DNA of 64,000 bases from Arenicellales bacterium (GCA_963693025.1 OY843749.1:712719-776718), one strand, 5' to 3'; counted from the stretch's first letter, positions 1,100 through 63,575 are shown. The notes: generated by a model from the letters alone, not told the origin. Translations and numbers: made by a program.

Positions 1100-1550
1100 C
1101 TCGTCATTCATTACTCGTCATTCCCCCTACTTCGTCTCTCGAGCGTTAGTGTCCGTTGCCGCCGCGCTTTTTCTTTTAAGCGGCGGCTTACGGACACTTA
1201 CGTCCTCGGGAATCTCCCTAAGACTGGCACGGGCTTTGTTGGAGTTCACGGTAGACTTAGGGAGATTCCCGAAGGTGATGAAAAATATAGTCGCTATCCA
1301 GCCTGTGTAAAAACTCTCCGCATATCGAAAGGGTGGGAAAATACTCATCAGAATCGCATAAAAACAGGGGCGAGATGGGAAACTTATCCCTTTTTATGAG
1401 AGTTTTTGCTATGTCGGTGGGAAAATTTTTCATGCGCCGCTTGATTTTTGGAATTTTTACACTGCCTGTATCGCTCCTTATTTTTCTATCATTCGAGAAT
1501 GACGAAGTTGTGGAATGACGAAGTTGTGGAATGACGAGTTGTGGAATGAC
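1100..1550. repeat. Cluster 1 of the ~200-bp palindromic repeat, with a nested MITE and a 16-bp GAATGAC terminal array
   Basis: CTCGTCATTC at 1100 and 1114; unit body GAGCGTTAGTGTCCGTTGCC...GGGAATCTCCCTAAG...CTTAGGGAGATTCCC; TCGAGAATGACG ends at 1504, followed by (ag/aag)ttgtgGAATGAC x3. Confidence 0.92.
1299..1468. mobile_element. 170-bp non-autonomous MITE with IS1182-type terminal inverted repeats
   Basis: Left end CAGCCTGTGTAAAAACTC (1299-1316) and right end GAATTTTTACACTGCCTG (1451-1468) match 15/18 as an inverted repeat. TATC is duplicated on both flanks (1295-1298, 1469-1472). The left end matches the IS1182 end at 54082-54099 at 17/18. Confidence 0.85.
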
Positions 1551-1557
1551 AAAGCGA

Positions 1558-2928
1558 TCACAAATACCAAGCCCCTTCATTCAGCTCACTTTCCACAAAC
1601 GCACGATACTCAGCCAACTTACAACTAGTATAAGCATCCAAATACTCCCGCCCGAAATAGTCGGGCAAGACTTGACCATGGCGGCAGGCTTCAAATGCGC
1701 GTTGTGGGTCGAGGGGCATTTGGGGGTCGGGTTGGGCGGCGGCGTTTCCGGTGGCGGGGGGACCCGCGTCGCTGCGGTTGACGATGCCGTGGTGGATGCC
1801 GGCGAGCAACGCCGCCAGGGTCAGGTAGGGATTGGCGTCGGCGCCGGCTACGCGGTGCTCCAGGCGGCGTTCGCTGCTTGCGCTCTTCGGCACGCGAATC
1901 GCCACGGAGCGGTTTTCGTAACCCCAACTGGGGCTGACCGGCACGTAACTGTCGGGCACAAAACGGCGGTAGGAATTGATGTTGGGCGCGAAGAGCGCCA
2001 TCGACTCCGCCAGGGTTTGCTTGAGCCCGCCGATGGCGTGACCGAGCAGCGGGCCCGCGCATGCGGGCGTGCCGTATTCACCGTCGCCGGCGAAGACGTT
2101 GCGCCCGCCGGCGTCGAGCAAACTGATATGCAAGTGCAGCCCGCTGCCGGCGTTGGCGGCGCTCGGCTTGGCCATGAAGGTGGCTTGCATGCCGTGTTTT
2201 TTCGCCACGCACTGAACCGCGCGGCGAAACATCACGCACTGGTCGGCGGCGGCGAGCGGGCGGTCGCTGTGGCGCAGGTTGATTTCAAACTGACCGGGGG
2301 CGTATTCCGCCGATATGGCGCCGGTTGCGATGCCCTGTTGGGCGCAGGCGTCGCTGACTTCGTGCAAGTAGTGGCTGAAACTTTCGACTTGGTCGATGCT
2401 GTATACCTGAGTGGCGGCGGCGCGCTGTCCGCTGAGCGGTGATAGCGGCGGTTGAATGCGTTGACCATTGTCGTGCGCCGGGTCAATCAGATAGAACTCA
2501 ATCTCAAACGCGACCACCGGCGTGAGCCCTAATTCGCCGAAGCGCGCGAGCACCTTGGCGAGCACATTCCTCGGCTCAAAATAATAAGGCGCGGCATCCG
2601 CGCTTTGCAGGGTCAGCAGAACCTGGGCGGTCGGGTAACGCGCCCACGGCGCCGGCGCCAGCGTGCCGGCGATGGGAATGCCGACTTCGTCGGGGTCGCC
2701 GTCGGAAAACCCCAGCCCTTCGGGGTCATGCGAATCACCGGTGACCGCCAGCAAAAACGACGAGCCGGGCAACATCATGCCGCCGCTGAAAACCTTCTCG
2801 GCCATGTCAACCGGATAACGCTTGCCGCGAATCACGCACGACAAATCGCACAAGACCGCATCCAGATATTGCGTGTCGGGGTGGCGTTGCAGATACGCGC
2901 CGAGGGGCGTGGGGTGGGTGGCGTTCAT
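1558..2928 (-). CDS. Glutamine synthetase-family gamma-glutamyl-amine ligase (PuuA-like)
   Basis: 456 aa with DLxxxxRGK, AFEIEFYL, EYAPGQFEINL, ATFMAKP, GSGLHLHISL, WGYENRSVAIR, EHRVAGADANPYL motifs. ATGA overlap with the upstream EamA stop. Confidence 0.85.
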   Translation of the reverse strand: MNATHPTPLGAYLQRHPDTQYLDAVLCDLSCVIRGKRYPVDMAEKVFSGGMMLPGSSFLLAVTGDSHDPEGLGFSDGDPDEVGIPIAGTLAPAPWARYPTAQVLLTLQSADAAPYYFEPRNVLAKVLARFGELGLTPVVAFEIEFYLIDPAHDNGQRIQPPLSPLSGQRAAATQVYSIDQVESFSHYLHEVSDACAQQGIATGAISAEYAPGQFEINLRHSDRPLAAADQCVMFRRAVQCVAKKHGMQATFMAKPSAANAGSGLHLHISLLDAGGRNVFAGDGEYGTPACAGPLLGHAIGGLKQTLAESMALFAPNINSYRRFVPDSYVPVSPSWGYENRSVAIRVPKSASSERRLEHRVAGADANPYLTLAALLAGIHHGIVNRSDAGPPATGNAAAQPDPQMPLDPQRAFEACRHGQVLPDYFGREYLDAYTSCKLAEYRAFVESELNEGAWYL

Positions 2929-3830
2929 CGAATGTCAGGGTGAGGCTTGCGCGGTACATCGCGCCACGCAATTCGCTCCCGCCACGCGATGAAGACGCCG
3001 CTGCCGACGACGATGGCGGCGCCGAGTAGCGTGGTGGGCGACAGCACTTCGCCGTAGAGCAGAAACCCGACGAGCATCGCCCATACCAACACGAAGTAGT
3101 TGAACGGTTGCAGTATCACCGCCGGCACCAGCGACAGCGCTTTGATGAGCAGCAAATGACCGATGATGGAAGTCAGGCTGATGACCAGCAACCACAGCGC
3201 ATCGGCGGTGGTCATCGGCTGCCAGTTGAAGGGCGCGATGAGCGCGGCGCCGATGAAGCCGACCACGGCGATGTAGAGAAACGAAGTCTCGAAAGAATCG
3301 TCGCGCGACACCTTGCGCGTGAGGATGTTATAGAGCGCAAACATGAACGCGGAAGCGAGCGCGATGGCCGCCGCGGGTTGGAAAACCGCGCTGCCGGGGC
3401 GCAGGATGATGAGCGTGCCGATGAACCCGCAACACACCGCAAGCCAGCGCCGCCAGCCGACCGCCTCGCGCAGAAGCGGCATCGACAGCGCGGTGATGAT
3501 GAGCGGGAAGCAGGCGAAGAGCGCGTGGATTTCGGCGAGCCCGAGGAACTGGATGGCATAAGCGAAGACGATGATTTCGCCGCCAATCAACAACCCGCGA
3601 AAAACCTGCAACCCCGGCCACCGCGACCGAAACGCCGCCGCAATCCCAACACGCCGCCCGACATAAATAAGCGCAAACACCGCAAAAAAGAAAAACCGCA
3701 CCGCCACAATCTGCGACGCCGCCAGCGTCTGCATCAAATGCTTGGTCAACGCATCCTGCGACGCAAAAAACAACGTGGCGATGACCAGCATGATGATGGC
3801 TTGGGTGGTGGGATCGCGGGGGGTGGGCAT
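2925..3830 (-). CDS. DMT/EamA-family transporter
   Basis: Hydrophobic ~10-TM protein (RWLAVCCGFIGTLIILRPG; AVILQPFNYFVLVWAMLVGFLLYGE). Start moved to ATG 3830 (MPTPRDP); a TATAAT lies upstream on the minus strand (3892-3897). Confidence 0.85.
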   Translation of the reverse strand: MPTPRDPTTQAIIMLVIATLFFASQDALTKHLMQTLAASQIVAVRFFFFAVFALIYVGRRVGIAAAFRSRWPGLQVFRGLLIGGEIIVFAYAIQFLGLAEIHALFACFPLIITALSMPLLREAVGWRRWLAVCCGFIGTLIILRPGSAVFQPAAAIALASAFMFALYNILTRKVSRDDSFETSFLYIAVVGFIGAALIAPFNWQPMTTADALWLLVISLTSIIGHLLLIKALSLVPAVILQPFNYFVLVWAMLVGFLLYGEVLSPTTLLGAAIVVGSGVFIAWRERIAWRDVPRKPHPDIR

Positions 3831-4831: not shown

Positions 4832-4879
4832 AACACCCTCCGCGCGACGAAAAGACGGACGCAACCGCCCGCGCCTTCC

Positions 4880-7673: not shown

Positions 7674-9160
7674 GGCAGTTTGGAGACCGCGATATGCGCG
7701 AGCAGGTTGTCGATGGTGGCGTGCATGACTTCGAGCAGCGGGTTGGGCCACACGCCGACCAGCAGAACCAACACAGCGAGGATGGACAGGAAGGCGGTTT
7801 CGCGCACATCGACATCGGCGAGCGCGGCGACTTGCTCGGAGGCGACCGCGCCGTAGATGACGCGCTTGACCATCCACAGCGTATACGCGGCGCCGAAAAT
7901 CAGCGTGAGCGCGGCGATGGCGGCGACCCAGGCGTTGACCCGAAAGGCGCCGAGGATGACCAGGAACTCGCCGACAAAACCCGAAGTCGCGGGCAAGCCG
8001 GCGTTGGCGAGCGCGAACAGCACCACGAAGCCGGCGAACACCGGCATGGGCGTGGCGATGCCGCCGTAGGTTGCGATCATGCGCGAGTGCAGGCGGTCAT
8101 ACAACACGCCGACGCACAGGAACAGCGCGCCGGAGATGAAGCCGTGGGAAATCATCTGAATCATCGCGCCCTCGGCACCGTGGGCGTTGAAGAGAAACAA
8201 GCCGAGGGTGACGAAGCCCATGTGGGAGATGCTGGAATAGGCGATGAGTTTTTTCATGTCGCGCTGCGCGAGCGCCACCAGCGCGATATAAACCACCGCG
8301 ATGAGCGACAGCGTAATCATCAGCCACGCCAACTCGATGCTGGCGTCCGGCGTGATGGGCAGGCTGAAGCGGATGAAACCGTAGCCGCCCATTTTCAGCA
8401 TAATCGCCGCGAGAATCACCGAGCCGCCGGTGGGCGCTTCGACGTGCGCGTCCGGCAGCCAGGTGTGCACCGGGAACATCGGCACCTTGACCGCGAAGGC
8501 GGCGAAGAACGCCAGGAACAACAACACCTGCGGGGCGAGCGCGAGTTTCAGGGCGTGGTAGTCGAGGATGCTGAAACTGCCGCCAGCGGCGTTGTAGAGG
8601 TAGAGCAACGCAACCAGCATGAGCAGCGAGCCGAGCAGGGTATACAGGAAAAACTTGATGGTCGCGTAGATGCGGTTGGGTCCGCCCCAGATGCCGATGA
8701 TGAGGAACATCGGAATCAGCATCGCCTCCCAGAAGAGGTAGAACAAGACCGCGTCGAGGGCGGCGAACACGCCGATCATCAAGCCCTCCATAATGAGGAA
8801 CGCCGCCATATACTGCGCCACGCGCTCGGTGATGACTTTCCAACCGGCGATGACAACCACCACGGTCAGCAGGGTGGTCAGCAGAATCAGCGGCAGGGAA
8901 ATGCCGTCAATACCGAGCGAGTAATGGATATTGAACGCGCTGACCCAAACCGCGTGCTCGCCGAATTGCATGGCCGCGGTGGCGGTGTCGAAGCGCGTGT
9001 AAAGCGGCACGCTCAACAGAAAAATCGCAACGGAAAACCCCAGCGCCAATCTGCGCGCCAACGCATCACGACGCTCGCCTTCCCCCCGCCCGGCGGCGAC
9101 GACCAACACACCGGCGAGGATGGGAAGCCAGATTAGCCAACTGAGCAAGTTATTTTCCAT
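7670..9160 (-). CDS. nuoM: NADH-quinone oxidoreductase subunit M
   Basis: FYLFWEAMLIPM, KVPMFPVHTWLPDAHVEAPTGGS, KKLIAYSSISHMG. Confidence 0.97.
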   Translation of the reverse strand: MENNLLSWLIWLPILAGVLVVAAGRGEGERRDALARRLALGFSVAIFLLSVPLYTRFDTATAAMQFGEHAVWVSAFNIHYSLGIDGISLPLILLTTLLTVVVVIAGWKVITERVAQYMAAFLIMEGLMIGVFAALDAVLFYLFWEAMLIPMFLIIGIWGGPNRIYATIKFFLYTLLGSLLMLVALLYLYNAAGGSFSILDYHALKLALAPQVLLFLAFFAAFAVKVPMFPVHTWLPDAHVEAPTGGSVILAAIMLKMGGYGFIRFSLPITPDASIELAWLMITLSLIAVVYIALVALAQRDMKKLIAYSSISHMGFVTLGLFLFNAHGAEGAMIQMISHGFISGALFLCVGVLYDRLHSRMIATYGGIATPMPVFAGFVVLFALANAGLPATSGFVGEFLVILGAFRVNAWVAAIAALTLIFGAAYTLWMVKRVIYGAVASEQVAALADVDVRETAFLSILAVLVLLVGVWPNPLLEVMHATIDNLLAHIAVSKLP

Positions 9161-9178
9161 ACGCGCCGCCCTTCGCCC

Positions 9179-11140
9179 TCACAACCAAACAAAAAAGGTG
9201 ACGAAACAGAACAAGCCGACGATCATCGCGAAGGCGTAGTGGTAGGTGAAGCCGGTTTGGAGGTTGCGCATGATGCCGGAGCAGGCGCGCACCAGGCGGG
9301 CGGAGCCGTTGACGATGATGCCGTCTATGAGACCTGCGTCGATGCGCGTTGACAGCATGTTGCCGAGGTTGAGCGAGCCTTTGGCGAAGGCGGCTTGATA
9401 GAATTCATCGAAGCCGTATTTGTTTTGCAAGATTCGATGGAGGGGTCCCGCGGCGGCGGCGATTTTGGCGGGTAGTTGGGTGTTTTTGCAGTAGCCATAC
9501 CAGGCGAGGCCGATGCCGGCGACCGCCAGCCAGAAGGGGGCGGTGAGCACGCCGTGCAGTATCGCCGACAGGATGAGGTCGAAGCCGTGTTTGCCGTGAT
9601 GGACGGCTGCCAATTTCGCCACGACATCGTGTTGCGGGTTGACGTGGATGGCGTTGCCGAAAAACGCGCCGTTGATGACCGGCTCGAAGAACATCCAGCC
9701 GGTTATTACCGACGGAATCGCCAGCGCAACCAGGGGCCAAATCACGACGCCGGGGGATTCGTGCAGGCGCTCGCGGGTGTGTTGGTCGGAGCGGTTGCTG
9801 CCGTGGAAGGTCATGAACAGCAGCCGGAACGAGTAGAAAGCGGTGACAAACACGCCCAGCAGCACCGCGACATACGCGTAGCCCGCGCCCCACACATCGC
9901 TGTGGCGCGCCGACTCGATAATCGCGTCTTTGGAAAAGAAGCCGGCGAACGGCGGGATGCCGGCGAGCGCCAACGAGCCGACCGCGGCGGTGATGTAGGT
10001 GATGGGCATGATTGCCCTGAGCCCGCCCATTTTGCGCATGTCCTGTTCGTGGTGCATGGCGATAATCACCGAGCCGGCGGCGAGGAACAGCAGCGCCTTG
10101 AAGAAGGCGTGCGTGCCGAGGTGGAAGATGGCGATTTCATAGGCGGACGCGCCGAGCGCGACGGTCATGTAGCCCAACTGCGAGAGCGTCGAATACGCCA
10201 CCACGCGCTTGATGTCGTTCTGCACCAAGCCGACCAGCGCCATGAAAATCGCGGTGGTTGCGCCGATGACCAGCACCACCGACAGCGCCGTCTCGGACAA
10301 TTCAAAGAGCGGCGACATGCGCGCCACCATGAAGATGCCGGCGGTCACCATGGTGGCGGCGTGAATCAACGCCGAGATGGGCGTGGGTCCCTCCATGGAG
10401 TCCGGCAGCCACACGTGCAACGGCACCTGCGCCGACTTGCCCATGGCGCCGACGAACAGCAGCAGGCAGATAATCGTCATCCACTTCCACTCGCCGAACA
10501 CGCCCGCCACGGTTTGCCCGGCGGCGGCTTCGGCGCCGGCGAACACCGCGCCGTAGTCGAGCGAGCCGAACAGATACAGCACCGCGGCGATGCCGAGCAG
10601 AAAGCCGAAGTCGCCCACGCGGTTGACCAGGAAGGCTTTGAGGTTGGCGGCGATGGCGCTGTCGCGTTCATACCAGAAACCGATTAGCAGATAGGACACC
10701 AGACCGACCGCTTCCCAGCCGAAGAACAACTGCAGGAAGTTGTTCGCCATCACCAGCATCAGCATGGCGAAGGTGAACAGCGCGATGTAGCAGAAGAAGC
10801 GCTGATAGCCGGGGTCGTCCGCCATGTAGCCGATGGTGTAGATGTGCACCATGAGCGAGACGAAAGTGACCACGATCATCATCATCGCGCTCAACTCGTC
10901 GATCATAAACCCGATTCGCAACGGCACGCCGCCGCTCACCGCCCAGGCGTAGATGGTGTCGTTGAACAGGTTGCCGGCGCGCACATCGGCATACACCACC
11001 AGCGACAGCACGAAGGCGGCGCCGACCCCGGCGATGGCGACCGAATGCGCGCCGCGGCGACCGATGACTTTGCCGAACAATCCGGTGATGACGGCGGCGG
11101 CGAGGCAGATGAGCGGGATTGCCAGATAGATGTTTCTCAT
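9179..11140 (-). CDS. nuoL: NADH-quinone oxidoreductase subunit L
   Basis: [57 protein letters not shown]. Confidence 0.97.
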
Positions 11141-12556: not shown

Positions 12557-13990
12557 TTATTCGTCCGGCAGGTTTGCCGATTTCAATTCTTCCTGAAACG
12601 CTTCGCCGGTGCGCGGATGCGCGAGTGGCGGCAGTTTGGGTTCTATGCCGCGAAAATACTCGTCGATGGAATACATAATCAAGCGCCTGAATTCTGTTTC
12701 ACCGCGTTTGAATGTCCCCGCTTGCAAGATGCACTTTCTCACCGCCGGCGTATCCCATTTTTTCAGCGTAATGAAAACACCCACCGCCGCCTTTCTGCTT
12801 GCGATGACGCCTGAAAAAGCCCGCAGCGAATCAATGGCGGGTTTGCCGCCTTTGACTTGGGAGATGCATAATTCCTCCTTCTTTTTGGCGCCATAAATCA
12901 GCGCGCGGCCATCGATGCCGCCGTCGCCGCGTTGCACCTTGTTCGGCGCAAAGCCGGGGATGCGCGTAACCGCCCACTTCTCAAAATCAAACGGATTGTC
13001 TTGCGCAAAATGCATTGCCCCTTTCAAGTCTTTCGGCACACCCGCCAGATTGATACGCATATCTTTCATGCGCTCACGCCGCACTACTTCGATGGCGTAA
13101 GCGGAAATATCAATGCCAATCCAGTTGCGTTTTAAGGAATGCGCCGCTTCAATGGTTGTGCCGCAACCACAAAACGGATCCAACACCAAATCGCCTGGGT
13201 TGCTGCTCGCCATGATGATTCGTTTCAGCAAAGCGAGCGGTTTTTGCGTGGGATACCCCAAGCGTTCCGCGGCCATGGCATTCAAGGCTTTCAAGTCGGT
13301 CCATACATCCATTGGCAGTTTCGTTTCTGTCGTTGCTCTGGTTGCACTCTTTTTCCCGGTACCCAGTCGCCTCAAAACTTCGGGGGTTCGTGGCGCCATG
13401 ATGTCCTCGCCATTAAATATAAATTTTTGGCTTTTGCTATAAAACAAAAGGATGTCGTGCTTTCTTGCGTAATGCTTCTTGCCCGCACCGCCGGTTTGGT
13501 AATGCCATATCACTTCATTTTTAAAATGTTTCTTCCCAAAAACCTCATCCATCAAGAGTTTCAAGTAATGCGACGCGGTCGGGTCGCAATGCAAATAGAT
13601 GCTGCCGGATTTTTTCAACAAACGGTGCATCTCGGCGATGCGCTGCGCCATATAAGATAGATACGACAACATTCCACTGCCATCGGGATAGATTTCTCTG
13701 AATGCGCGGATGGCACGATGCGCCGGGTGGTCGATAGCGTTTTCGATTAAGCGCACGCGCTGCTCCGCCGCCTCATCCCATTCCCAAGTATCGGTAAAAG
13801 CCGTCAGTTGCGCGATGTCTTCGTTGTCGCCGCCGTTGCGCTGCGTGCCGAAGATGATGTTGTAGTCCGCCTTGCTGTTGAAAGGCGGGTCGAGGTAAAT
13901 CAAATCGACGGCGTTGTCGGGCCACTCGCGCATCACCTCCAAACAATCGCCGTAATACAGCGTGTTTTTTTTCATTTCCATTTCCATCAT
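12557..13990 (-). CDS. N4/N6 DNA methyltransferase (beta-type order) with C-terminal Mrr-like domain, passenger between nuoI and nuoJ
   Basis: [14 protein letters not shown] (motif IV), [17 protein letters not shown] (motif I), and C-terminal DGGIDG...QVKGG. Start ATG 13990 (alternatives 13987/13981/13975) behind AAGGGG. Confidence 0.9.
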   Translation of the reverse strand: MMEMEMKKNTLYYGDCLEVMREWPDNAVDLIYLDPPFNSKADYNIIFGTQRNGGDNEDIAQLTAFTDTWEWDEAAEQRVRLIENAIDHPAHRAIRAFREIYPDGSGMLSYLSYMAQRIAEMHRLLKKSGSIYLHCDPTASHYLKLLMDEVFGKKHFKNEVIWHYQTGGAGKKHYARKHDILLFYSKSQKFIFNGEDIMAPRTPEVLRRLGTGKKSATRATTETKLPMDVWTDLKALNAMAAERLGYPTQKPLALLKRIIMASSNPGDLVLDPFCGCGTTIEAAHSLKRNWIGIDISAYAIEVVRRERMKDMRINLAGVPKDLKGAMHFAQDNPFDFEKWAVTRIPGFAPNKVQRGDGGIDGRALIYGAKKKEELCISQVKGGKPAIDSLRAFSGVIASRKAAVGVFITLKKWDTPAVRKCILQAGTFKRGETEFRRLIMYSIDEYFRGIEPKLPPLAHPRTGEAFQEELKSANLPDE

Positions 13991-14007
13991 GCCGTCCCCT
14001 TTTGCGC

Positions 14008-14499
14008 TCACCGATACGGCGCGTCTTGTTTGCGCGCGGCGGCTATTTCGGTTTCGTATTGGTCGCCGATTTCCAGCAGGCGTTGTTTGTCGATCCAGCG
14101 CTCGTGTTCTTCTTCCATGTGGAACTCGTGGATGTCGGTCATGACGATGGAGTCCACCGGGCAGGCTTCTTCGCAGAAGCCGCAGTAGATGCACTTGAAC
14201 AAATCAATGTCGTAGCGCGTGGTGCGGCGCGTGCCGTCGGCGCGTTCTTCGGAGTCGATGGTGATCGCCAGCGCCGGGCAGACGGCTTCGCACAGTTTGC
14301 AGGCGATGCAGCGCTCTTCGCCGTTGGGGTAGCGGCGCAACGCGTGCAGGCCGCGAAAGCGCGGCGATTTCGGCGTCTTTTCCTTTGGGTACATGATGGT
14401 GATTTTGCGGCTGAACAGCCGCCGCCCGGTGACGCGCATTCCCTTGCGCAACTCCTTGAGCGTGAAGGTTTTGTAAAGTTGTTTGATGTCGATTCCCAT
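14008..14499 (-). CDS. nuoI: NADH-quinone oxidoreductase subunit I
   Basis: Two 4Fe-4S motifs: [12 protein letters not shown] and [12 protein letters not shown]. Confidence 0.97.
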
Positions 14500-24224: not shown

Positions 24225-24829
24225 TTTTCCGCGCCGCCCCCAACCGCCTTCCCAATCGTACGCGGCACCAACACACGCGGCTCAATCGTCACCGGCTGAT
24301 AAATCACCCGCCCCTGCTCCTCGTCGTAGCGCATTTCCACCTGTCCGGAGAGCGGGAAATCCTTGCGGAACGGGTGGCCGATGAAGCCGTAGTCGGTGAG
24401 CAGGCGGCGCAGGTCGGGGTGGCCGTCGAAGAGGATGCCGAACAGGTCGAAGGCTTCGCGTTCATACCAGTTGGCAGCCGCCCATATTTCCACCACCGAA
24501 TCCACCGTCGGCGGATTGGCGTCGTCGTCGAGCGCAACCCGCAGGCGCAACCGCGCATTGTTGTGCAGCGACAGCAAATGATAGACCACCGCAAACCGCC
24601 CGCCCGCCCACGCACCGCCCCCTTCGGCGCCCCAACTCGAATAATCAACCCCGCACAAATCGATCAACGACTCAAAGCGAGTCGCCGGGTCATCCCTCAA
24701 CAACGCACAAACTTCCTTAATCCGCCCCGGCGCAATCTCGCAAGTCACCTCGCCCAACGCAACCGACTGCGAAAGCAACGCATCGCCCAGTAGGTCGGGC
24801 AAGCGGTCGTTGAGTTGGGATGGGTTCAT
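24221..24829 (-). CDS. nuoC: NADH-quinone oxidoreductase subunit C
   Basis: [50 protein letters not shown]. Start 24829 overlaps the upstream MTase stop. Confidence 0.96.
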
Positions 24830-29676: not shown

Positions 29677-30212
29677 CTCGTCATAACAACTCCTCGTCAT
29701 TGTTTGTATCATCCCTGATACAAACCCTTCGGGCTTACGCGAAAATCCGCTCCCGGCGGATTTTTCTCGAACGGTAGAAAATAGGGAGCCCCCACAACTC
29801 GTCATTCTCGAATGATAGAAAAATAGGGAGCGCCAGCGACCATATTTTTCATCACCTTCGGGAATCTCCCTAAGGCTACCGTGAATTTCAACAAAGCCCG
29901 TGCCAACCTGAGGGAGATTCCCGAGGACGCAAGTGTCCGTAAGCCGCCGCTTAAAAGAAAAAGCGCGGCGGCAACGGACACTAACGCTCGAGAATGACGA
30001 GTTATAAATACCCGTCATTCTCGAACGGTAGAAAATAGGGAGCCGACAGGCGACCATATTTTCTTCGATTCGGGAATCTCCCTAAGGCTACCGTGAATTT
30101 CAACAAAGCCCGTGCCAGTCTTAGGGAGATTCCCGAGGACGCAAGTGTCCGTAAGCCGCCGCTTAAAAGAAAAAGCGCGGCGGCAACGGACACTAACGCT
30201 CGAGAATGACGA
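29677..30212. repeat. Cluster 2 of the ~200-bp repeat: tri-hairpin insert in a terminal fragment, then two tandem full copies (29798-30001, 30012-30212)
   Basis: Reverse-orientation copies joined by the spacer TTATAAATACC; CTCGTCAT reiterated at 29677 and 29693. Confidence 0.93.
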
Positions 30213-30286
30213 AGTGGTTGTGAATGCCGCCTACGCAGTGGCGCTTTTGGGGGCGCTTGACGATTAGATTTGCGCCCTTTACTCAA

Positions 30287-38290: not shown

Positions 38291-38652
38291 GTCGTCATTC
38301 TCGAGCGTTAGTGTCCGTTGCCGCCCCCACTACTCCGTCATTTCGAGCGTTAGTGTCCGTTGCCGCCCCACTACTCCGTCATTCTCGAGCGTTAGTGACC
38401 GTTTGCCGCCGCGCTTTTTCTTTTAAGCGGCGGCTTACGGACACTTGCGTCCTCGGGAATCTCCCTAAGACTGGCACGGGCTTTGTTGGAATTCACGGTA
38501 GCCTTAGGGAGATTCCCGAAGCGAAGAAAATATGGTCGCCTGTCGGCTCCCTATTTTCTATCGTTCGAGAATGACGAGGTTGGGGGGCTCCCTATTTTTC
38601 TATCGTTCGAGAATGACGGCTATTACCCGTCACTCTCGAGCGTTAGTGTCCG
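38291..38652. repeat. Cluster 3 of the ~200-bp repeat: two 5'-end fragments, a full copy (38377-38578), a 3'-end fragment and a 5'-end fragment
   Basis: GTCATT(C)TCGAGCGTTAGTGTCCG occurs four times and TTCGAGAATGAC twice; fills the whole gap between two convergent stop codons. Confidence 0.93.
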
Positions 38653-39537
38653 CTACCCCCCACGCTTGATCTTGAGTCCCGTTTCGTAAAGTTCATTGCG
38701 GCTTTCGTTGAGGAGTTTTGCGGCTATTTGGGTGGCGCGTTTGAGGGGCATTTCTTCGCTCAGTAGCGTCATGATTTCGGCTGCGCGGCGGGCTTCGCCT
38801 CGGCGGGCGGTGGCGCCGCTGATGATGAGCACGAACTCGCCCTTGCGGTGATGCGCGGCGGTGGCAAGGGTTGTCCTCACCTCCGCCAGCGTGCCGCAGT
38901 AAAAGGTCTCGAATTTCTTGCTGATTTCGCGCGCCACGGTGACCTGCCGGTCGTCGCCGAACAGCGGCGCCATCGCCTCGAGCGTGGCGGTGATGCGGTG
39001 GCTGGATTCGTATAAGACCAGCGTGCGCGGCTCGTCTTGCAGGTCGCGCAACCGCCGCTTGCGGGCTTCGGCGGTGGCGGGCAGAAACCCCTCGAAGCAG
39101 AACCGCTCGGCGGACTGCCCCGCCGCCGACAGCGCCGCGGTCACGGCGCTTGCGCCCGGCACCGGGGTCACGCCGATGCCCGCCTCCCGCGCCCGGCGCA
39201 CCAGACGGTAGCCGGGGTCGCTGATGAGGGGCGTGCCGGCGTCGCTGATTAGCGCCATGCGCGCGCCGCCGCCCAGCCGCCGCAGCAACGCCGGCAGCCG
39301 CGCGGCTTCGTTGTGTTGATGAAACGAGCGCACCGGCGTGCGAATGTCCAGATGCCGCAGCAGCACCGCCGCGCGCCGGGTGTCTTCCGCGAGAATCAAA
39401 TCGACCCGCGCGAGCACGTCGATTGCGCGCAGGGTGATGTCCGCCAGGTTGCCGATGGGCGTGGCGACGACGAACAGCGTGCCGGTTTCGCCGCCGGTTT
39501 CAGACGCGCGGGCGGGCGCTTCGGTTTTGCGGTTCAT
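38653..39537 (-). CDS. rsmI: 16S rRNA (cytidine1402-2'-O)-methyltransferase
   Basis: LFVVATPIGNLADIT, AEDTR, ISDAGTPLISDPG, LYESSHR, REISKKFE, KGEFV; divergent from lpoA. Confidence 0.95.
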   Translation of the reverse strand: MNRKTEAPARASETGGETGTLFVVATPIGNLADITLRAIDVLARVDLILAEDTRRAAVLLRHLDIRTPVRSFHQHNEAARLPALLRRLGGGARMALISDAGTPLISDPGYRLVRRAREAGIGVTPVPGASAVTAALSAAGQSAERFCFEGFLPATAEARKRRLRDLQDEPRTLVLYESSHRITATLEAMAPLFGDDRQVTVAREISKKFETFYCGTLAEVRTTLATAAHHRKGEFVLIISGATARRGEARRAAEIMTLLSEEMPLKRATQIAAKLLNESRNELYETGLKIKRGG

Positions 39538-43436: not shown

Positions 43437-43460
43437 TATCGAGGGGAAACCTCCACCTAC

Positions 43461-43748
43461 CCGTCATTCTCGAACGGTAGAAAATAGGAAGCATCAACAA
43501 CTCGTCATTCTCGAACGATAGAAAAATAGGGAGCCGACAGGCGACCATATTTTTCATCGCCTTCGGGAATCTCATCCCGACTAGCGCTGAGTTCAAACAA
43601 AGCCCGTGCCAGTCTTAGGGAGATTCCCGAGGACGCAAGTGTCCGTAAGCCGCCGCAAGAAAAAGCGCGGCGGCAACGGACACTAACGCTCGAGAATGAC
43701 GAGGTTGTTGTAACGCTCGAGAATGACGGGTAAATGAAGAATGACGAG
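43461..43748. repeat. Cluster 4 of the ~200-bp repeat: terminal fragment, full copy (43501-43703) and reiterated GAATGAC ends
   Basis: CGTCATTCTCGAACG x2 at the left; (GA)GAATGACG x3 at the right. Confidence 0.92.
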
Positions 43749-45744: not shown

Positions 45745-46318
45745 TTGGCTTAGGCCGCAGGGCTTGTGTTAGGGATGATACAAACAAAAGTCCGCCACAA
45801 CTCGTCATTCTCGAACGGTAGAAAAATAACCCCCAACCTCGTCATTCTCGAACGGTAGAAAATAGGGAGCCGATAGGCGACCATATTTTCTTCGATTCGG
45901 GAATCTCCCTAAGGCTACCGTGAATTCCAACAAAGACCGCGCCAGTCTCAGGGAGATTCCCGAGGTCGTAAGTGTCCGTAAGCCGCCGCTTAAAAGAAAA
46001 AGCGCGGCGGCAACGGACACTAACGCTCGAGAATGACGAGTTATATATACCCGTCATTCTCGAACGGTAGAAAATAGGGAGCCGACAGGCGACCATATTT
46101 TCTTCGATTCGGGAATCTCCCTAAGGCTGGCGTGAATTTCAACAAAGACCGCGCCAGTCTCAGGAAGATTCCCGAGGTCGTAAGTGTCCGTAAGCCGCCG
46201 CTTAAAAGAAGAAGCGCGGCGGCAAACGGACACTAACGCTCGAGAATGACGGGTTGTTGGAATGACGAGTCGTTGGAATGACGGGTCTTTGGAATGACGA
46301 GTCGTTGGAATGACGAGG
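45745..46318. repeat. Cluster 5 of the ~200-bp repeat: degenerate tri-hairpin, terminal fragment, two tandem full copies (45838-46040, 46052-46251) and a 16-bp GAATGAC array
   Basis: Spacer TTATATATACC between the copies; GAATGACG repeated every 16 bp from 46244 to 46318. Confidence 0.93.
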
Positions 46319-47035: not shown

Positions 47036-47036
47036 T

Positions 47037-47136
47037 GATAACGCCGGGCGCGACTCAGCGATAACGCCGAACGCGGCTCAGCGATAACGCCAAACGCAAC
47101 TCAGCAACAACACCGAACACCGCTCAGCGATAACGC
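47037..47136. repeat. 23-bp tandem repeat (~4.3 units) filling the gap between convergent genes
   Basis: GATAACGCCGGGCGCGACTCAGC / GATAACGCCGAACGCGGCTCAGC / GATAACGCCAAACGCAACTCAGC / AACAACACCGAACACCGCTCAGC / GATAACGC. Confidence 0.85.
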
Positions 47137-51478: not shown

Positions 51479-52478
51479 CCGGGCGCGGGGGACACATGCG
51501 AATACTGAAAACTAATCAAAAACCCAGAAAGACTTACCTTGCGCCATGCTCGGCGTTGGTGAAAGATATGACGGTAACCGGAGATTGATCGGGGCGCAGT
51601 TTAATGGCGGAAAAAGAGGCAAAAGCCAGAATCAAAATCAATAAACTGCTGGAAGCGGCGGGCTGGCGCCTGCTGGACAGTGAAAGCGGGAAATCGAATG
51701 TGCTCTTGGAAAACCGCACCACCATCACCAGCGCTGGCCTTGACGCGCTGGGAGAAGATTTCGAAAAAACAAATTTCGGCTACATTGACTTTCTACTGAT
51801 TGACGACCAAAATTTTCCTCTTGCGGTACTGGAGGCAAAAGCAGAAAAAATCAATCCGCTCGCCGCTAAAGAACAAGCGCGTAAATATGCTCGGTCACAA
51901 AACTGCCGATTTGTCATTCTTTCCAATGGCAACTTGCATTATTTCTGGGATTTAGAGCAAGGAAATCCGGAAATTATTACGCACTTTCCCGATAGCGCTT
52001 CCCTTGGGAAGCGCAAAGAATACCATCCGAATTTTGCAAAACTGTCGTCCGAGTTGGTGGAAAGGGATTACATCGCCCTAAGCCACATGCCCGATTATGC
52101 CTGCAACCCAGGGTGGATGAATGAGCGGCAACGTTCAGATTTTGAAAGGAAAGAAGGGCTGAGGTTCTTGCGCGATTACCAGTTGCGGGCGGTGCACGCA
52201 TTGCAACAATTCGCCGGAAAAGAGAATAATCGCTTTCTGTTTGAAATGGCCACGGGCACCGGTAAAACCTTGACCGCGGCGGCGCTAATCAAACTGTTTC
52301 TGAGAACCGGGAACGCGCGGCGTGTGCTGTTTCTTGTGGACCGGCTGGAGCTGGAAGAGCAAGCGCATAAGGAATTTAAGCAACTATTACAGAAAGACTA
52401 CCAGTGTATCATCTACAAAGAAAAACGCGACGATTGGCGGAAGGCTGAAATTGTGGTCAGCACAGTGCAGTCGCTACT

Positions 52479-54099
52479 CAGCCCGTGCAAAAACTCAAGC
52501 CGCCGCAAGCCAATCGTCCGGCGCGGTTTGTTGTTTTAGCGATGCTCGCGCCGGGCGGGGATGTTCTTGCTTAAAAAACGCCGCTCAAGCCGGCGCCGGG
52601 GAGGGCTCCGCCAATCTCGCGCACAGCGTCTCAACGCCCATGAGGTTGATGACCCGTTTCAGGTTATACGCCAGCATACACATACCCGCTTCCGCCTTGA
52701 CTTTATCCAAACCACGCAGCAGAAACCGACCGCCACCCATCATCTGTTTGATGTTGCCGAACGGATGCTCGCTCAAACTCGCCCGCAAACGCATCAACTC
52801 CGGATGCGCCACCGACCGCCGGTGCATGCGCTCCACCACCGACTCATGATAAGGACGACTGATGCTGCGCCGCCGACTGCCAGTGCACTGACTTCGCATA
52901 CCGCAACCACCGCAAGCATCAGTCGTGTAATGCCGCGTCTGCTTCTTCGCCTCGTTGCGATAACGCCGCAACACCTCGCCAGCCGGACAAGTATAAACAT
53001 CGCGCCGACCATCATATCTAAACCGCGCGCGGCTGAAATAATCACCGCGCGGATGCGACAACTTCGCGCGCGGCACCACCGCCGTTATACCCGCCGCCTC
53101 ACACGCCGCACCCTGCGCGCCATTCTGATATCCCGCATCCGCCAACACCGTCAATCCCTTCACCCCCAAAGCCGCCTTCGCTCGCTTCGCCATGCCATAC
53201 AACTGCCGACGGTCGTTGCTCTCAGTGGTCACTTCATGCGCCGCAATCAACTTGTGCTTGCCATCCACCGCCGTCTGCACATTGTAACTCACCGCTCGAC
53301 CGCCGCCCGCTTGACGCATCAGCCGCGCATCTCCCTCGCCCTTCACCACCTGAGCACCACCGCGACCGCGCAACTCCGCCGACAACCCATCCAACTTGCC
53401 CTTATGCGCATCCAACGCCGCCAACGCCGCGCGCACCGCCGACACTTCCGCCACTTCATCCACCGGCGCATCCGACGCATCCGACGCTTCCAGCAACTCT
53501 CTATACGCCGCCACTTCGCGCTCCACTTGCGCCATCTCTCGCCGTATCCGCGCCGCCGTATAAACCGACTTCTTGCCCGACACCGCGCCAAACTTGGAAC
53601 CATCCACCGCCACCAACTCGCCGCCATACAACCCCGCCCGACGACAAAAATCCACAAACCGCGCGCACACCCCCGACCACGCCGCCGCATTGTCCCGACG
53701 AAAGTTCGCAATCGTCTTGAAGTCCGGACGCAAATCTCGCAACAACCACTGCAACTCCTGATTGCGACCACACTCCCTCTCCAAACGCCGACTCGACCGA
53801 ATCTGATTCAAATAACCATACACAAACAACTTCAACATCATCCCCGGATGATACGGCGGACGACCGGTCGCCGCCGCCACCACCTTGCCAAAACCCAACT
53901 CTAACAAATCCAACTTATCCACAAACCGGTCAATCACTCGCACCGCATTATCCGCCGCCACACGCTCATCCAGCGTCACCGCAAACAACGCCGACTGATG
54001 ACGCGATACCCCTTCAACATGACCCATCCCCGAATCCCCCCATATGAAAATCAAAGTCAAAGAATTTTACCCGAATGGGACGAGTTTTTACACGGGCTG
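52479..54099 (-). mobile_element. IS1182-family insertion sequence (1621 bp)
   Basis: TIRs CAGCCCGTGCAAAAACTC and GAGTTTTTACACGGGCTG match 17/18; 4-bp target duplication TACT (52475-52478, 54100-54103). Confidence 0.93.
52585..54027 (-). CDS. IS1182-family DDE transposase
   Basis: QSALFAVTLDE.V..DN.VRVID, GRPPYHP, SSRRLERE, PDFKTIANFR, VDGSKF, YNVQTAVD, ADAGY, EHPFGNIK. Confidence 0.92.
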   Translation of the reverse strand: MGHVEGVSRHQSALFAVTLDERVAADNAVRVIDRFVDKLDLLELGFGKVVAAATGRPPYHPGMMLKLFVYGYLNQIRSSRRLERECGRNQELQWLLRDLRPDFKTIANFRRDNAAAWSGVCARFVDFCRRAGLYGGELVAVDGSKFGAVSGKKSVYTAARIRREMAQVEREVAAYRELLEASDASDAPVDEVAEVSAVRAALAALDAHKGKLDGLSAELRGRGGAQVVKGEGDARLMRQAGGGRAVSYNVQTAVDGKHKLIAAHEVTTESNDRRQLYGMAKRAKAALGVKGLTVLADAGYQNGAQGAACEAAGITAVVPRAKLSHPRGDYFSRARFRYDGRRDVYTCPAGEVLRRYRNEAKKQTRHYTTDACGGCGMRSQCTGSRRRSISRPYHESVVERMHRRSVAHPELMRLRASLSEHPFGNIKQMMGGGRFLLRGLDKVKAEAGMCMLAYNLKRVINLMGVETLCARLAEPSPAPA

Positions 54100-55757
54100 T
54101 ACTGTTCGATAACAAGTATCAAAGGGTGTTCTCTCCCTCCGACTTTGACTTCATCATTTCTGATGAGGCACACCGTTCCATTAGCGGTAATGCGCGCGCA
54201 CTGTTTGAGTATTTTCTCGGCTATAAACTGGGACTCACGGCCACGCCGAAGGATTATCTAAAAAACCTGGAGAATAAGCCCACGGATGCCCGCGAAATGG
54301 AACGGCGTTTGCTACTGGATACCTACCGCACTTTTGGCTGCGAAAGTGGAGAGCCGACTTTTCGTTATTCATTAGTGGACGGAGTACGGGACGGTTACTT
54401 GGTGAAAACCTATGTGGTGGATGCTCGTAGCGAAATCAGCCAAGAGTTGCTGTCGGATGGAGGTCACACTGTCAGTATCCTCGGCGAGGATGGCGATCTG
54501 GAAGAGCATTCTTATATCAGCAAAGATTTTGAGCGGAAGTTCTTGTCCGATCCGACCAATCGGGTTTTTTGCGATACCTTTCTTAAGTACGCTGAGCGCG
54601 ACCCAGTGAGTGGCGAGATTGGCAAAACCATCGTTTTCACTGTCAGTCAAAATCACGCCGCTAAAATTACCCAGCTACTGAACCAGATGGTGGATGAAAT
54701 GTTCCCCGGCAAGTACAACTCGGACTTTGCCGTCCAGGTGACATCTCTTGTTCAAGGCGCCCAGCAATTCAGCCGCAATTTTTCCAACAACAACCTGAAT
54801 GGGTCGGGCCATTTTTCGGATTCCTACAAGACTTGCAAAACCCGCGTGTGCGTTACCGTGGGCATGATGACCACCGGTTATGACTGCACAGATATTCTTA
54901 ATCTTTGCTTGATGCGCCCAATTTTTTCGCCTACGGATTTTGTGCAGATGAAGGGCCGCGGTACCCGGCGCCATGATTTTCTGGAGCAGTTGACCAGCAA
55001 TGACCTCAAAGAAGAAATTGGAGTCGCGCGAAAAGATCATTTCAAACTGTTCGATTTTTTTGCCAATTACGAATACTTTGAGGAAAAGTATGATTATGAT
55101 CAAGTGATCGAGTTACCACACCTCGGTGAGGGTGCTGGTAGCGTTGGCACCGAGCAAAATCAGGCGAAATATGAAAGCCAAGAACCCGATCAACTTAAAA
55201 GTTGGGATGAAACGCTCATCGGCAAGGAAGGAATGAAAGTAGATCGAAAAATGTTTGATCGTTTTGAGGAAACGGTCAAAGCTGACGAGTTTATCCGCCG
55301 TGGTGTTGAGACCGGACAGTGGGGGATTGTCATCAACCATTTGAAAGAAAATGTGTTTGACCGGCCGGAAGATTACTTCAATCTGAAAAAATTACGCTGG
55401 GCGGTGGGTGCCGACCGCCGCCTAAGCCACCGGGAATTGTTGGAAAAAGCATTTGGATTAATTCCGCGTTTCAAATCGAAAGACGAGTTGCTGGAAGAGG
55501 AATTTAATAAATTCATTGCCGACTGCAAGCCTGATAATCCAGAAAGCATTGTACCTATGAAGTACTACTTCAAGGCCTATGTTACGGACAGCCAAGTACG
55601 GGAAATTGTGGGGAATAAGGATTTCTCCAAACTCTATGCAAACTCGGTTTTGCCCTTTGAGGACTACAAAAACGTGCCCGAAAAATGGCGCGAAACCATT
55701 CCTGAATACATCAAGGATTATGTCCAACTCAACCCGTTCATCGGGTAAGGTACGGTC

Positions 55758-61784: not shown

Positions 61785-63109
61785 CGAGCGCGCTCCGTCG
61801 TCGTCGTGTCGGCGTCCGCATCGGTACCGACCCATGGGCGGCAGTAAGTTTCGCGCAGCAGCAGGATGCACACCAGCGCCAGGAGATTGGAGCCGATGAG
61901 CACGGTGAAGGCGGTGGTATAGGCGTCGGCGGCGTAGATGCGCACGCCGTCCACGATGCGCCCGTCCCAGTTGAGGTCCAGCAGCCAGCCGATGACCGGC
62001 TGCATCACCGCCCCCGACCCGACCACGCACATATTGACCAAGCCCATGGCGGTCGCGCTGTGGCGGGGTGAGTTGACTTCGCGCATCGAGCCGAACACCA
62101 CGGTCATCATCGAGCCGCTGAGCCCCAGCACAAAAAACAACACCGACATCACCGCCGGCGCGCTGAAGCCGGCGAACAGGATGACCGAAAAAAGCAGCGT
62201 GTTGCAGAGGATGCCGCCGAGCAGAACCGGCTTGCGCCTGCCCTGGAAATCCGACAACCAGCCCATGGCGGGCGCGCCGATTGCCCAGCCGAAGAACAGC
62301 ATCGACGACACCCCGGCGGCGGTCGCCATCGGATAACCAAAAACGCTGTTGAGCCACGGCACCGCCCATAGCCCGGCGAACGCCAGCATGATGCCGGTCA
62401 TGCCGAAACCGATGCCGGCGCACGCCCAACTCTGCGGATTGGCAATCACCGCGAACACGCCTTTGGCGGTGCTCGGCGCTTCATGCTGCGGCTGATGTTG
62501 CGGCGGATGTTGCGCGGACTGCGGGCGGCGCGGCACGATATAGAACAACGACACCGCCAACGCCACCGACACCACGCCCAGCGAGCCGATGACCATGCGC
62601 CAGCCGAATTGCTCCACCACATACCGCAGCGGCGCTTGACTGAGCACCGCGCCGAGCATGCCGATGCTCTGCACCAATCCGGCGAGCATCGCAAAACGCG
62701 CCGGCGCAAACCAGTAGCCGGCGATGGTCAGCGTGCCGACAAATGCGAACGCCACCGAGCCGCCGATCAACGCGCGAAAAAACGACGCCGCCCAGAGCGA
62801 TTCGCTGAGCGCAAAGCCAAACGAACTCAGCGCGCACACCGCCACCGCAACGCTCATCAGTTTGCGCGGACCGAAGCGGTCGTTCAACATCCCAACCGGG
62901 ATTTGGATGCTGGCATAGGCGTAAAAATACCAACCCGACAACGTGCCCAACGCCGCCGCACCAACCGAAAAATCGCGCATCCATTCGGCGGTCATCACAC
63001 TCGGCGCAACCCGATGCACAAAAGCCAAAGCAAAAAACAACGCCCCCACCGCAAAAGCGGCCAGCGCACGCGAGGAAGAAACAACACGGTCGGGAGGGTT
63101 CACCGGCAT
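61781..63109 (-). CDS. MFS transporter
   Basis: 12-TM pattern with MFS motif G.LNDRFGPRK and GWLSDFQGRRK. Confidence 0.88.
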   Translation of the reverse strand: MPVNPPDRVVSSSRALAAFAVGALFFALAFVHRVAPSVMTAEWMRDFSVGAAALGTLSGWYFYAYASIQIPVGMLNDRFGPRKLMSVAVAVCALSSFGFALSESLWAASFFRALIGGSVAFAFVGTLTIAGYWFAPARFAMLAGLVQSIGMLGAVLSQAPLRYVVEQFGWRMVIGSLGVVSVALAVSLFYIVPRRPQSAQHPPQHQPQHEAPSTAKGVFAVIANPQSWACAGIGFGMTGIMLAFAGLWAVPWLNSVFGYPMATAAGVSSMLFFGWAIGAPAMGWLSDFQGRRKPVLLGGILCNTLLFSVILFAGFSAPAVMSVLFFVLGLSGSMMTVVFGSMREVNSPRHSATAMGLVNMCVVGSGAVMQPVIGWLLDLNWDGRIVDGVRIYAADAYTTAFTVLIGSNLLALVCILLLRETYCRPWVGTDADADTTTTERAR

Positions 63110-63249
63110 CGAGTCAATGGATTGTAAAGTTGGCGGCGCACAAGCAACCGCAAAGCGGGCATATTATACGCAACACGCACACACGGCGGAGCAAACCGGC
63201 CAGACTTTACGGGGCATGAATTCGCCCCATTCCGGAATGGCGGCTATTA

Positions 63250-63575
63250 CTCGTCATTCTCGAGCGTTAGTGTCCGTTGCCGCCGCGCTTCTTCTTTTAA
63301 GCGGCGGCTTACGGACACCCCCGCTAACACACTGCGGGGGCAGGCTTGCGTCCTCGGGAAAAATCCGCCGGGAGCGGATTTTCGCGTAGCCCGAAGGGCG
63401 CGTATCAGGGATGATACGCGCAATCTCCCTAAGACTGGCACGGGTTTTTGTTGGAATTCACGGTAGCCTTAGGGAGATTCCCGAGGTCGTAAGCGCCCGT
63501 AAGCCGCTACGCGGCAACGGGCGCTAACGCTCGAATGACGACGTGGGGGGTATTTTCTACCGTTCGAGAATGACA
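63250..63575. repeat. Cluster 6 of the ~200-bp repeat: symmetric chimeric copy with tri-hairpin insert, plus a terminal fragment
   Basis: Left arm, then a 63-nt insert (63361-63423), the central hairpin, and the reverse complement of the left arm ending TCGAATGACG at 63540. Confidence 0.9.

Follow-up and report, generated by a model that had tools for sequence, protein, structure and literature searches.

Repeat units in six intergenic clusters

The genome of Arenicellales bacterium (GCA_963693025.1) carries, within a stretch of 64,000 nucleotides (OY843749.1:712719-776718; hereafter the window, with positions counted from its first letter), a family of palindromic repeats of about 204 bp that probably belongs with the CGTC-tagged repetitive extragenic palindromes (REPs). 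The units were located by blastn, with the copy at 29798-30001 as the query, and with an nhmmer profile. These searches recovered six intact units of 202-204 bp each, one unit split by an insertion, a chimeric copy spanning 63250-63577, and many fragments, in agreement with the original prediction, made from the sequence, of seven canonical copies and one chimera in six intergenic clusters and in both orientations. Every cluster lay between genes supported by Pfam, and the combined length of the six is 2,552 bp (4.0% of the window). The 14-nt terminal motif of the unit occurred 23 times in the window with up to two mismatches (0.33 expected by chance), the 17-nt stem arm 14 times (0.03 expected), and the 8-mer core CGTCATTC 29 times (3.4 expected). 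The nested stem GTGTCCGT-GCCGCCGC, the 17-bp stem and the terminal motif described earlier were all in place, as was the compensated variant GCGCCCGT/ACGGGCGC at 63493-63524.

Loci fetched from other genomes for comparison are designated by L-numbers. Sister strains that are 95-98% identical to the window and co-occur in ENA metagenome ERZ22155170 contributed about 270 kb, and L065 belongs to a related genome of 2.6 Mb with 52% GC. Full units from the window and the other strains were aligned, first seven and then 28 (27 of them complete at the ends), and the mean column identity was 88-90% in these alignments. From left to right, the unit consists of a CGTC-ATTCTCGA left end, hairpin a, hairpin A, hairpin B and a TCGAGAAT-GACG right end. 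Hairpin a is formed by GAAAAATA and TATTTTTC around a loop of 16 nt, hairpin A by TCGGGAATCTCCCTAAG and CTTAGGGAGATTCCCGA around a loop of 33 nt, and hairpin B by GTGTCCGT..GCCGCCGC and GCGGCGGC..ACGGACAC. In each of the 27 complete units, CGTC stood immediately before ATTCTCGA at either end, and the outer ends of every unit read CGTC...GACG, that is, with the tags outside (the HH arrangement). The stem arms, ATTCTCGA/TCGGGAAT and ATTCCCGA/TCGAGAAT, are 8 nt long and start with AT. The left part of the unit can be written CGTC-ATTCTCGA-(hairpin a)-TCGGGAAT, designated REP-a, and the right part, on the opposite strand, CGTC-ATTCTCGA-GCGTTA-(hairpin B)-TTGCGTCC-TCGGGAAT, designated REP-B; the arms are 45 nt apart in REP-a and 62 nt apart in REP-B. 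The tails of the two, CTCCCTAAG and CTTAGGGAG, are complementary and make up the 17-bp stem. Terminal inverted repeats are perfect over 12-14 bp and extend to about 20 bp (CAACAACTCGTCATTCTCGA/...GTTGTTG).

The complete unit, whether single-stranded or extruded as a cruciform, is predicted to close into a four-way junction. Folded as RNA, each strand had a predicted energy of -108 kcal/mol (z = -12.1 and -10.3), and the DNA fold gave z = -11.9. Pairing of outer arm with outer arm was perfect in 27 of 27 units, and that of inner arm with inner arm in 28 of 28. Covariation was assessed by direct pair counting over 28 units and 63 pairs, with 500 shuffles. In this set 97.9% of the cells were paired and 43 of the 63 pairs were invariant. 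Cells changed on both sides numbered 25, compared to 9.3 in the shuffles (0/500), and the count of covarying pairs was no higher than in the shuffles (371/500). Hairpin a contained three covarying pairs (T-A/C-G, A-T/G-C and G-C/A-T) and a matched indel (A5/T5 versus A4/T4); no pair changed on both sides in the terminal stem, hairpin A (the 17-bp stem) or hairpin B of the 28 full units. Recombinant copies L070_6077 and w38369 break hairpin-a pairs, and the covariation of this hairpin therefore behaves as linked haplotypes. A compensated hairpin-B variant was present in one of 39 copies and an uncompensated A-to-T change in five of 39, and changes in hairpins A and B were mostly uncompensated. 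The covarying stems announced by the original prediction thus hold for hairpin a and for one hairpin-B copy, and are overstated for the terminal stem, the 17-bp stem and the other copies of hairpin B. These results indicated that the hairpins are maintained, and the covariation data do not discriminate between RNA and DNA structures.

The clusters are mosaics of separable modules. Fragment breakpoints in the nhmmer profile fell at about model positions 42-46, 56, 77, 106-110, 123-130 and 177, and include ATTCYCGA half-sites, the inner ATTCCCGA/TCGGGAAT motifs at positions 56 and 130. The unit end is also reiterated alone in two 16-bp tandem arrays (Table 1). A separate module of about 62 bp with two hairpins, designated fam2, also has several copies in L064 and L069. 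Its junctions lie at ATT^CYCGA or at the hairpin-a motif ATTTTTC, and its outer stem occurs as two fully complementary haplotypes, GCGCG...CGCGC and GTTTG...CAAAC.

The neighbors of the clusters, assigned by Pfam, were an OYE reductase gene and a glnA-like gene (cluster 1), a P-type ATPase gene and ponA (cluster 2), a metal-resistance gene and rsmI (cluster 3), a BON-domain gene and coaD (cluster 4), an unknown gene and an isochorismatase gene (cluster 5), and an MFS transporter gene and an ABC transporter gene (cluster 6). The assignment of rsmI was based on orthologous called genes in L066 and L074. Two further intergenic tandem repeats are unrelated to the family; one lies between argH and lysA (36315-36386; 21 bp, 3.4 copies) and the other downstream of the isochorismatase gene (47024-47143; 23 bp, 5.2 copies). 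In related proteobacteria pilMNOPQ commonly sits beside ponA. In the window aroK-aroB comes immediately after ponA, on the opposite strand (32713-32836), and pilMNOPQ is missing there, an arrangement that may hint that type IV pili have been lost. At three places, 12557-14194, 19459-21422 and 24826-26439, the nuo (complex I) operon (about 5000-27300, minus strand) is interrupted by inserts with DNA methyltransferase (MTase) or Mrr-type genes and an unknown gene. The cargo differs in the sister strains and includes DndB pairs, a GIY-YIG open reading frame (ORF), an NYN-domain gene and one or two MTases.

Table 1 Repeat units, modules and related features of the window. MITE, miniature inverted-repeat transposable element; TSD, target-site duplication.
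Feature	Position	Strand	Basis and remarks
Cluster 1 end motifs	1096..1131	-	ACTCGTCATTC x2 beside unit copy 1; CGTCATTC at 1102 and 1116
Unit copy 1	1132..1505	-	blastn; hairpin-a loop split by 170-bp MITE (1299-1468, TSD TATC)
16-bp tandem reiteration of unit end	1497..1554		TRF; GAATGACGAAGTTGTG, 3.7 copies; single copy in L054
Cluster 2 flank	29702..29797	+	fam2 double-hairpin module (29702-29765) and left-end fragment; block missing from L066
Unit, reference copy, first of tandem pair	29798..30001	+	blastn
Unit, second of tandem pair	30011..30213	+	blastn; spacer TTATAAATA; folds computed
Cluster 3, two 42-bp partial copies	38291..38376	-	Right end and half of hairpin B; content differs in L066
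Unit, cluster 3	38377..38578	-	blastn
Left-end and right-end fragments	38586..38673	-	Second overlaps rsmI stop (38653-39537, minus strand)
Cluster 4 left-end fragment	43454..43491	+	nhmmer profile
Unit, cluster 4	43501..43703	+	5' arm of 17-bp stem degenerate
Reiterated end motifs, cluster 4	43717..43748	-	Motif scan
Cluster 5 flank	45767..45837	+	fam2 remnant (45767-45790) and left-end fragment
Unit, first of tandem pair, cluster 5	45838..46040	+	blastn
Unit, second of tandem pair, cluster 5	46050..46253	+	blastn; 3.5 units at this site in L074
16-bp tandem reiteration of unit end	46244..46317		TRF; 4.6 copies
IS1182-family transposase	52585-54060	-
hsdR pieces	51604-52539 and 54075-55748		Type I restriction gene
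Cluster 6, reversed REP-B module	63250..63360	-	Extra small hairpin 63319-63344
fam2 module, cluster 6	63361..63420	-	Inserted at ATT^CCCGA half-site of 17-bp stem
Hairpin A (17-bp stem and loop), cluster 6	63421..63484	-	Motif scan
Variant REP-B	63485..63541	+	Compensated stem GCGCCCGT/ACGGGCGC (63493-63524), short loop
Left-end fragment, cluster 6	63551..63577	-	Motif scan, nhmmer profile

Relation to CGTC-tagged REPs and other explanations

CGTC-tagged REPs were described in 2013 by Di Nocera, De Gregorio and Rocco (BMC Genomics 14:522; PMC3733652). They are defined by a CGTC tag, an 8-9-bp stem with an AT start, in which the first two pairs are A-T and T-A, a loop of 4-5 nt, and a CCA tail, and their dimers are mostly HH (PMC3733652). 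CGTC-1 in Neisseria is dRS3, the CGTC REPs of R. conorii are RPE-4 and RPE-6, and no dedicated transposase was found in the published survey (PMC3733652). The unit described here is probably a non-coding member of this superfamily, composed of two long-stem REPs back to back with the tags outward, that is, an HH heterodimer. Like CGTC-1 REPs, it has an unpaired CGTC tag followed by an AT-start stem (ATTCYCG...), forms HH dimers and reaches a high intergenic copy number, and no dedicated transposase gene was seen in the window or in about 270 kb of sister-strain loci; in addition, canonical members occur in the same clusters of a sister strain and in the related genome. Elements of this kind have already been described, which weakens the novelty claimed by the original prediction; only the composite form is new.

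The canonical members connect the unit to the published elements. Inside a unit cluster, L070 (10298-10410) has a canonical CGTC-ATTCCCGCA-GGA-TGCGGGAAT-CCAG hairpin with an inverted partner, and the arrays of L065 hold CGTC-ATTCTCGC-GAAA-GCGGGAAT-CCAG; L070 has one such short-loop CGTC hairpin and L065 four. The dRS3 of N. gonorrhoeae, CCGTCATTCCCGCGAAAACGGGAATCCAGT, is near-identical to the array hairpin of L065. The gonococcal sequence was taken from an N. gonorrhoeae chromosome in PLSDB, in which two 2.17-Mb chromosomes of this species (NZ_CP119140.1 and NZ_CP119142.1) are filed as plasmids. L065 also contains a long-stem REP, CGTC-ATTCTCGA-ACGAT-A-GAAAAATA-(loop)-TATTTTTC-ATCGT-A-TCGGGAAT-CCAG, the first 57 nt of which are identical to the left third of units L063_5695 and L068_5196 of the sister strains. 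This REP-a shares the G-C/A-T polymorphism of hairpin a and has the canonical CCAG tail. The likeness to Neisseria dRS3/NIME and Rickettsia elements that had been proposed for the family was therefore borne out by the common CGTC tag and AT-start stem and by the dRS3-type hairpins in clusters of the sister strain and the related genome. Long NIME-like arrays with near-canonical dRS3 hairpins lie at 9000-10450 and 15900-16540 of L065 and adjoin a gene for a giant DUF285/cadherin-like protein of more than 2,900 aa. No Neisseria DNA uptake sequence was found in L065, so NIME-type arrays are not confined to Neisseria. Matches to dRS3-like 30-mers were also found in Azospirillum and Photobacterium replicons, which fits a wide spread of CGTC REPs.

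Several observations weigh against the assignment to CGTC-tagged REPs. The arms of the unit enclose nested hairpins of 45-62 nt, unlike the 4-5-nt loop of CGTC-1 REPs, and the tail of the window units is CTC(CCTAAG), within CTCCCTAAG and paired with the tail of the partner, instead of CCA. No canonical short CGTC hairpin was present in the window. The unit also differs in being a fixed 204-bp dimer with a four-way junction that is itself tandemly duplicated. Because the two outer arms, ATTCTCGA/TCGAGAAT, pair perfectly with each other, as do the two inner ones, TCGGGAAT/ATTCCCGA, whereas REP-wise pairing costs one mismatch per stem, the unit may now act as one element and not as a pair of REPs. 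The strain comparison revealed no site empty of a whole unit, and the six window clusters were occupied in the second and third strains examined. A mobilizing enzyme was not found among the window ORFs scanned and about 270 kb of sister-strain DNA. Common descent from dRS3 would rest on a short motif and the intermediates described above, not on long alignments, in a host outside the Neisseriaceae, and blastn of the unit against a collection that included two N. gonorrhoeae chromosomes gave no match.

Perfect terminal inverted repeats of 12-14 bp that reach about 20 bp, a uniform unit size and a high copy number would also be expected of a classical MITE, that is, a deletion derivative of an insertion sequence (IS) with a DDE transposase, moved in trans by cut-and-paste through 14-20-bp terminal inverted repeats (TIRs), and genuine MITEs with a parent IS exist in this species. 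We regard this origin as improbable. The units lack a target-site duplication, the bases outside the tag being inverted and not direct, whereas the two real MITEs found here show 4-bp and 8-bp duplications and empty sites. No IS with the ends of the unit was present in the approximately 330 kb of the species examined, and the ends of the IS1182-family element differ. Moreover, modules occur alone, end motifs occur in 16-bp tandem arrays, and the unit ends are the REP signature of CGTC plus AT-stem. A reading of the clusters as NIME-type arrays, in which the ATTCYCG half-sites serve as substrates of a Piv/IS110-type recombinase that shuffles modules and recruits foreign DNA (compare the integration of Nf phage into dRS3), is unlikely, and less so than descent from a MITE; it overlaps the explanation by CGTC-tagged REPs and differs only in the enzyme proposed. 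The mosaic arrays are syntenic with strain-variable repeat numbers, in agreement with the description of NIMEs (PMC1797815); breakpoints of modules and junctions of fam2 lie at half-sites, and two units bracket the sufB-sufC island of L064. Against this, the window gave no match to the 20-bp dRS3 (ATTCCCN8GGGAAT), not even when each arm was allowed one degenerate position. The gene calls of the fetched loci listed no IS110/Piv-type gene, genes of filamentous phages were not seen either, and the organism is not Neisseria. NIMEs, which combine dRS3 with RS elements, resemble the clusters in the half-site CGTCATTC(C/T)CG, in the intergenic mosaic arrays of several families and in the insertion of other mobile elements. 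They differ in having more than 100 RS families in place of one dominant 204-bp arrangement, and the present host is an uncultured gammaproteobacterium without the Neisseria DNA uptake sequence; no link to filamentous phage was seen.

The original prediction had also offered a structured RNA family, and selection for the fold of a small RNA or a cis-regulatory element would explain the very stable predicted fold (z = -12), the three covarying pairs and matched 1-nt indel of hairpin a with their excess of cells changed on both sides, and the compensated variants in the divergent hairpin-B copy and the fam2 stems. In addition, the sister-strain clusters within the operons trkA|trkH and dctP|dctQ must be transcribed; clusters were also found at sufB|sufC. 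Nevertheless, an RNA family appears quite unlikely. Rfam gave no match at the gathering score over the window, and in E-value mode only matches with E = 0.5-0.7. Both strands fold equally, the units take either orientation to the neighboring genes (the gaps being 13 tandem, 4 convergent and 4 divergent), and modules occur separately. Most pairs are invariant, covarying pairs are no more numerous than in shuffles, recombinant copies contain broken pairs, most changes in hairpins A and B lack compensation, and the same signals are seen in palindromic DNA elements. Promoter- and terminator-like consensus sites were not in excess, and a promoter or terminator function of the units was accordingly rejected. 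That the repeats encode a family of small proteins is extremely unlikely. A public collection contains 38 predicted 'proteins' (ids P0039-P0076) that are translations across units, 10 of them from the source genome. Indels of 1 and 2 nt between copies leave no conserved frame; the predictions start and end arbitrarily, cover one to three units, are of low complexity and are confined to the species group together with the 2.6-Mb genome of L065. They contain no credible Pfam domain, a precomputed match to PF15221 being attached to two of them. These 38 entries are annotation artefacts.

Other known repeats share parts of this organization with the CGTC-tagged unit. The REPINs of REPIN/RAYT systems, in which GTAG-tagged REP doublets go with a domesticated IS200-like transposase, likewise consist of two inverted REPs that form a larger replicating hairpin unit, with a tetranucleotide tag beside the hairpin and a homogeneous family. 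Their tag is GTAG and not CGTC, they form a single hairpin of about 70-110 bp as opposed to 204 bp and four helices, and no Y1 domain was found in the Pfam lists of the fetched loci. Rickettsia RPE-4 and RPE-6 belong to the same CGTC-tagged superfamily (PMC3733652). Rickettsia RPEs often lie in frame within coding genes, whereas all copies here are intergenic, with at most a fragment over a stop codon. The BIMEs of E. coli, the RIMEs of Sinorhizobium and the Correia elements of Neisseria are also 100-200-bp intergenic mosaic or palindromic repeats that can lie within operons, but they have no sequence similarity to the unit, and Correia elements have a TA duplication and 26-bp TIRs, in contrast to the units, which show no duplication.

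Variation between strains and insertions into the units

The DNA that flanks the units was about 96% identical between strains. Four of six positional orthologues of the units were only 85-94% identical, and each of these had a match of 93-97.5% among non-orthologous copies. The matches to paralogues thus exceeded the identity of orthologues, which points to gene conversion or replacement among copies. The arrays themselves differed between strains. Cluster 5 has two units in the window and in L063 and 3.5 in L074, and the 16-bp end array of cluster 1 numbers 3.7 copies in the window, compared with a single copy in L054. In cluster 2, the window has an extra block of fam2 and left end, flanked by direct CTCGTCATT repeats, that is missing from L066. 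The flanks of cluster 3 vary between strains, as do those of clusters 1 and 2, and flank blocks were gained or lost between CGTCATT repeats. These results indicated that units are homogenized between copies and that arrays vary between strains. The empty-site comparison proposed with the original prediction revealed module and copy-number differences only; no site had a whole cluster present in one strain and absent in another.

An IS1182-family element of 1,621 bp (TIR CAGCCCGTGYAAAAA; NCBIfam NF033551, E = 2e-116) is present in the species. The copy at 52479-54099 of the window, with TIR CAGCCCGTGCAAAAA and a 4-bp duplication, TACT, splits hsdR. The low-GC island around hsdR, which encodes a type I restriction-modification system (about 51.5-58.7 kb), is absent from the sister strain L063. 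L069 contains two full copies of the element, at 1400-3020 and 8141-9761. The 170-bp MITE inside unit copy 1 (1299-1468) has IS1182-family ends and a TATC duplication, and alignment with strain L054 revealed an intact 204-bp unit at this site, empty of the MITE. Three of the four IS1182-type insertions lay at one target, the hairpin-a loop GTCGC|TATC|GC, in either orientation and with a 4-bp duplication. Because both IS copies of L069 and the 170-bp MITE share this target, the distribution suggests sequence- or structure-specific targeting of the repeat by the IS1182-family element.

A second MITE, at 3132-3321 of L074, is 190 bp long and is delimited by a 26-bp TIR, GGGRAYTATCGCGCAAAGTTGACAAA; the duplication at its target, ATATTTTT, measures 8 bp. 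This MITE occupies the 3' arm of hairpin a of the unit orthologous to the one at 29798, and neither the window nor L066 has it. In its ends, which would be similar to those of IS26, and in the size of its duplication it may resemble the IS6 family. Hairpin a harbored four of the six IS and MITE insertions observed. The units serve as landing pads for the IS1182-family IS, its MITE and the second MITE. BIMEs are preferred targets of specific insertion sequences such as IS1397, and resemble the units in this respect.

Distribution, possible activity and significance

The closest named relatives by PBP1A were metagenome-assembled genomes designated 'Gammaproteobacteria bacterium' or 'Arenicellales bacterium' (59-75% identity). 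The Neisseria DNA uptake sequence dialect was absent from the 64 kb, and tblastn against mislabelled chromosomes gave top matches of 40-44%, the best being Aeromonas and Pasteurella (43-44%), with N. gonorrhoeae not among the top rows. The host is a gammaproteobacterium and not a member of the Neisseriaceae. At least 10 more repeat loci lie in the source genome, none of them inside the window, which together with the six window clusters gives at least 16 clusters; extrapolation of the window density to the whole genome gives several hundred units. Sister-strain loci contained three to six clusters per approximately 17-21 kb, a density enriched by their selection through spurious repeat-derived ORFs. 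Matches were confined to the species group and L065, in line with the lineage-specific, non-autonomous family originally proposed, which proved lineage-restricted and non-coding. The relatives L053, L060 and L067 (nuo about 80% identical in nucleotides, or PBP1A 78% identical) had no CGTCATTC in 63 kb. There was no match in JGI metagenomes (two patterns) or to the repeat pattern in viral contigs, or by blastn of the unit against phage and plasmid collections, and a scan of a genome collection with a pattern of 16 specified bases gave chance single matches only.

That two genera share an identical REP-a which closer relatives lack suggests that this module has spread horizontally. A close relative of L065 has a PBP1A 72% identical to that of the window. 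The identical 57 nt of REP-a at this distance, the repeat-free closer relatives, the 89% identity of copies and the turnover of arrays would fit recent horizontal spread and ongoing activity. It is conceivable, though rather doubtful, that the lineage carries a currently active system that moves or homogenizes CGTC-tagged REPs. Spread and homogenization of the units would occur at the DNA level, by recombination or gene conversion between copies, or through a trans-acting enzyme that would read the CGTC tag and AT-stem hairpin on single-stranded DNA, by analogy with RAYTs and GTAG REPs. Effects on transcripts of these very stable hairpins within operons would be a by-product and not the reason for the family.

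As the original prediction had reported, no cognate transposase was seen among the window ORFs. Neither the Pfam-annotated gene calls in about 270 kb of sister-strain DNA nor the window ORFs scanned included a RAYT/HUH-type (Y1) gene. A GIY-YIG enzyme had also been put forward and was rejected as a partner, since the sole GIY-YIG ORF beside a unit, in L064, is single-copy and has two relatives in 5.8 billion proteins. This weak ORF lies with cytochrome c, cytochrome b and HARE-HTH genes in a 4.6-kb insert between sufB and sufC (L064 8001-12580) that has a unit on either side, both oriented the same way. A tyrosine recombinase beside two units of L070 was likewise set aside: it is a divergent integrase that scored far below the XerC/D cut-offs, and at a locus where almost all gaps contain repeats, adjacency means little.

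CGTC REPs are widespread, in alpha-proteobacteria, Neisseria (dRS3/NIME) and Rickettsia (RPEs). Unlike the GTAG REPs, which have RAYTs, we know of no mobilizing enzyme and no agreed function for them. The present species group offers a clean case, in which a homogeneous dominant unit accounts for about 4% of the DNA sampled, several co-occurring strains are closed or near-closed, one module is identical in another genus, and canonical and derived forms occur side by side. It can be used to ask how CGTC REPs, including dRS3, spread and homogenize. The hairpins, as safe landing pads, provide an example of IS targeting, and annotators should note that at least 38 public protein entries are translations of the repeat. 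If an active system is indeed present, the closed genomes and co-occurring strains could reveal its enzyme through co-occurrence and flank analysis.

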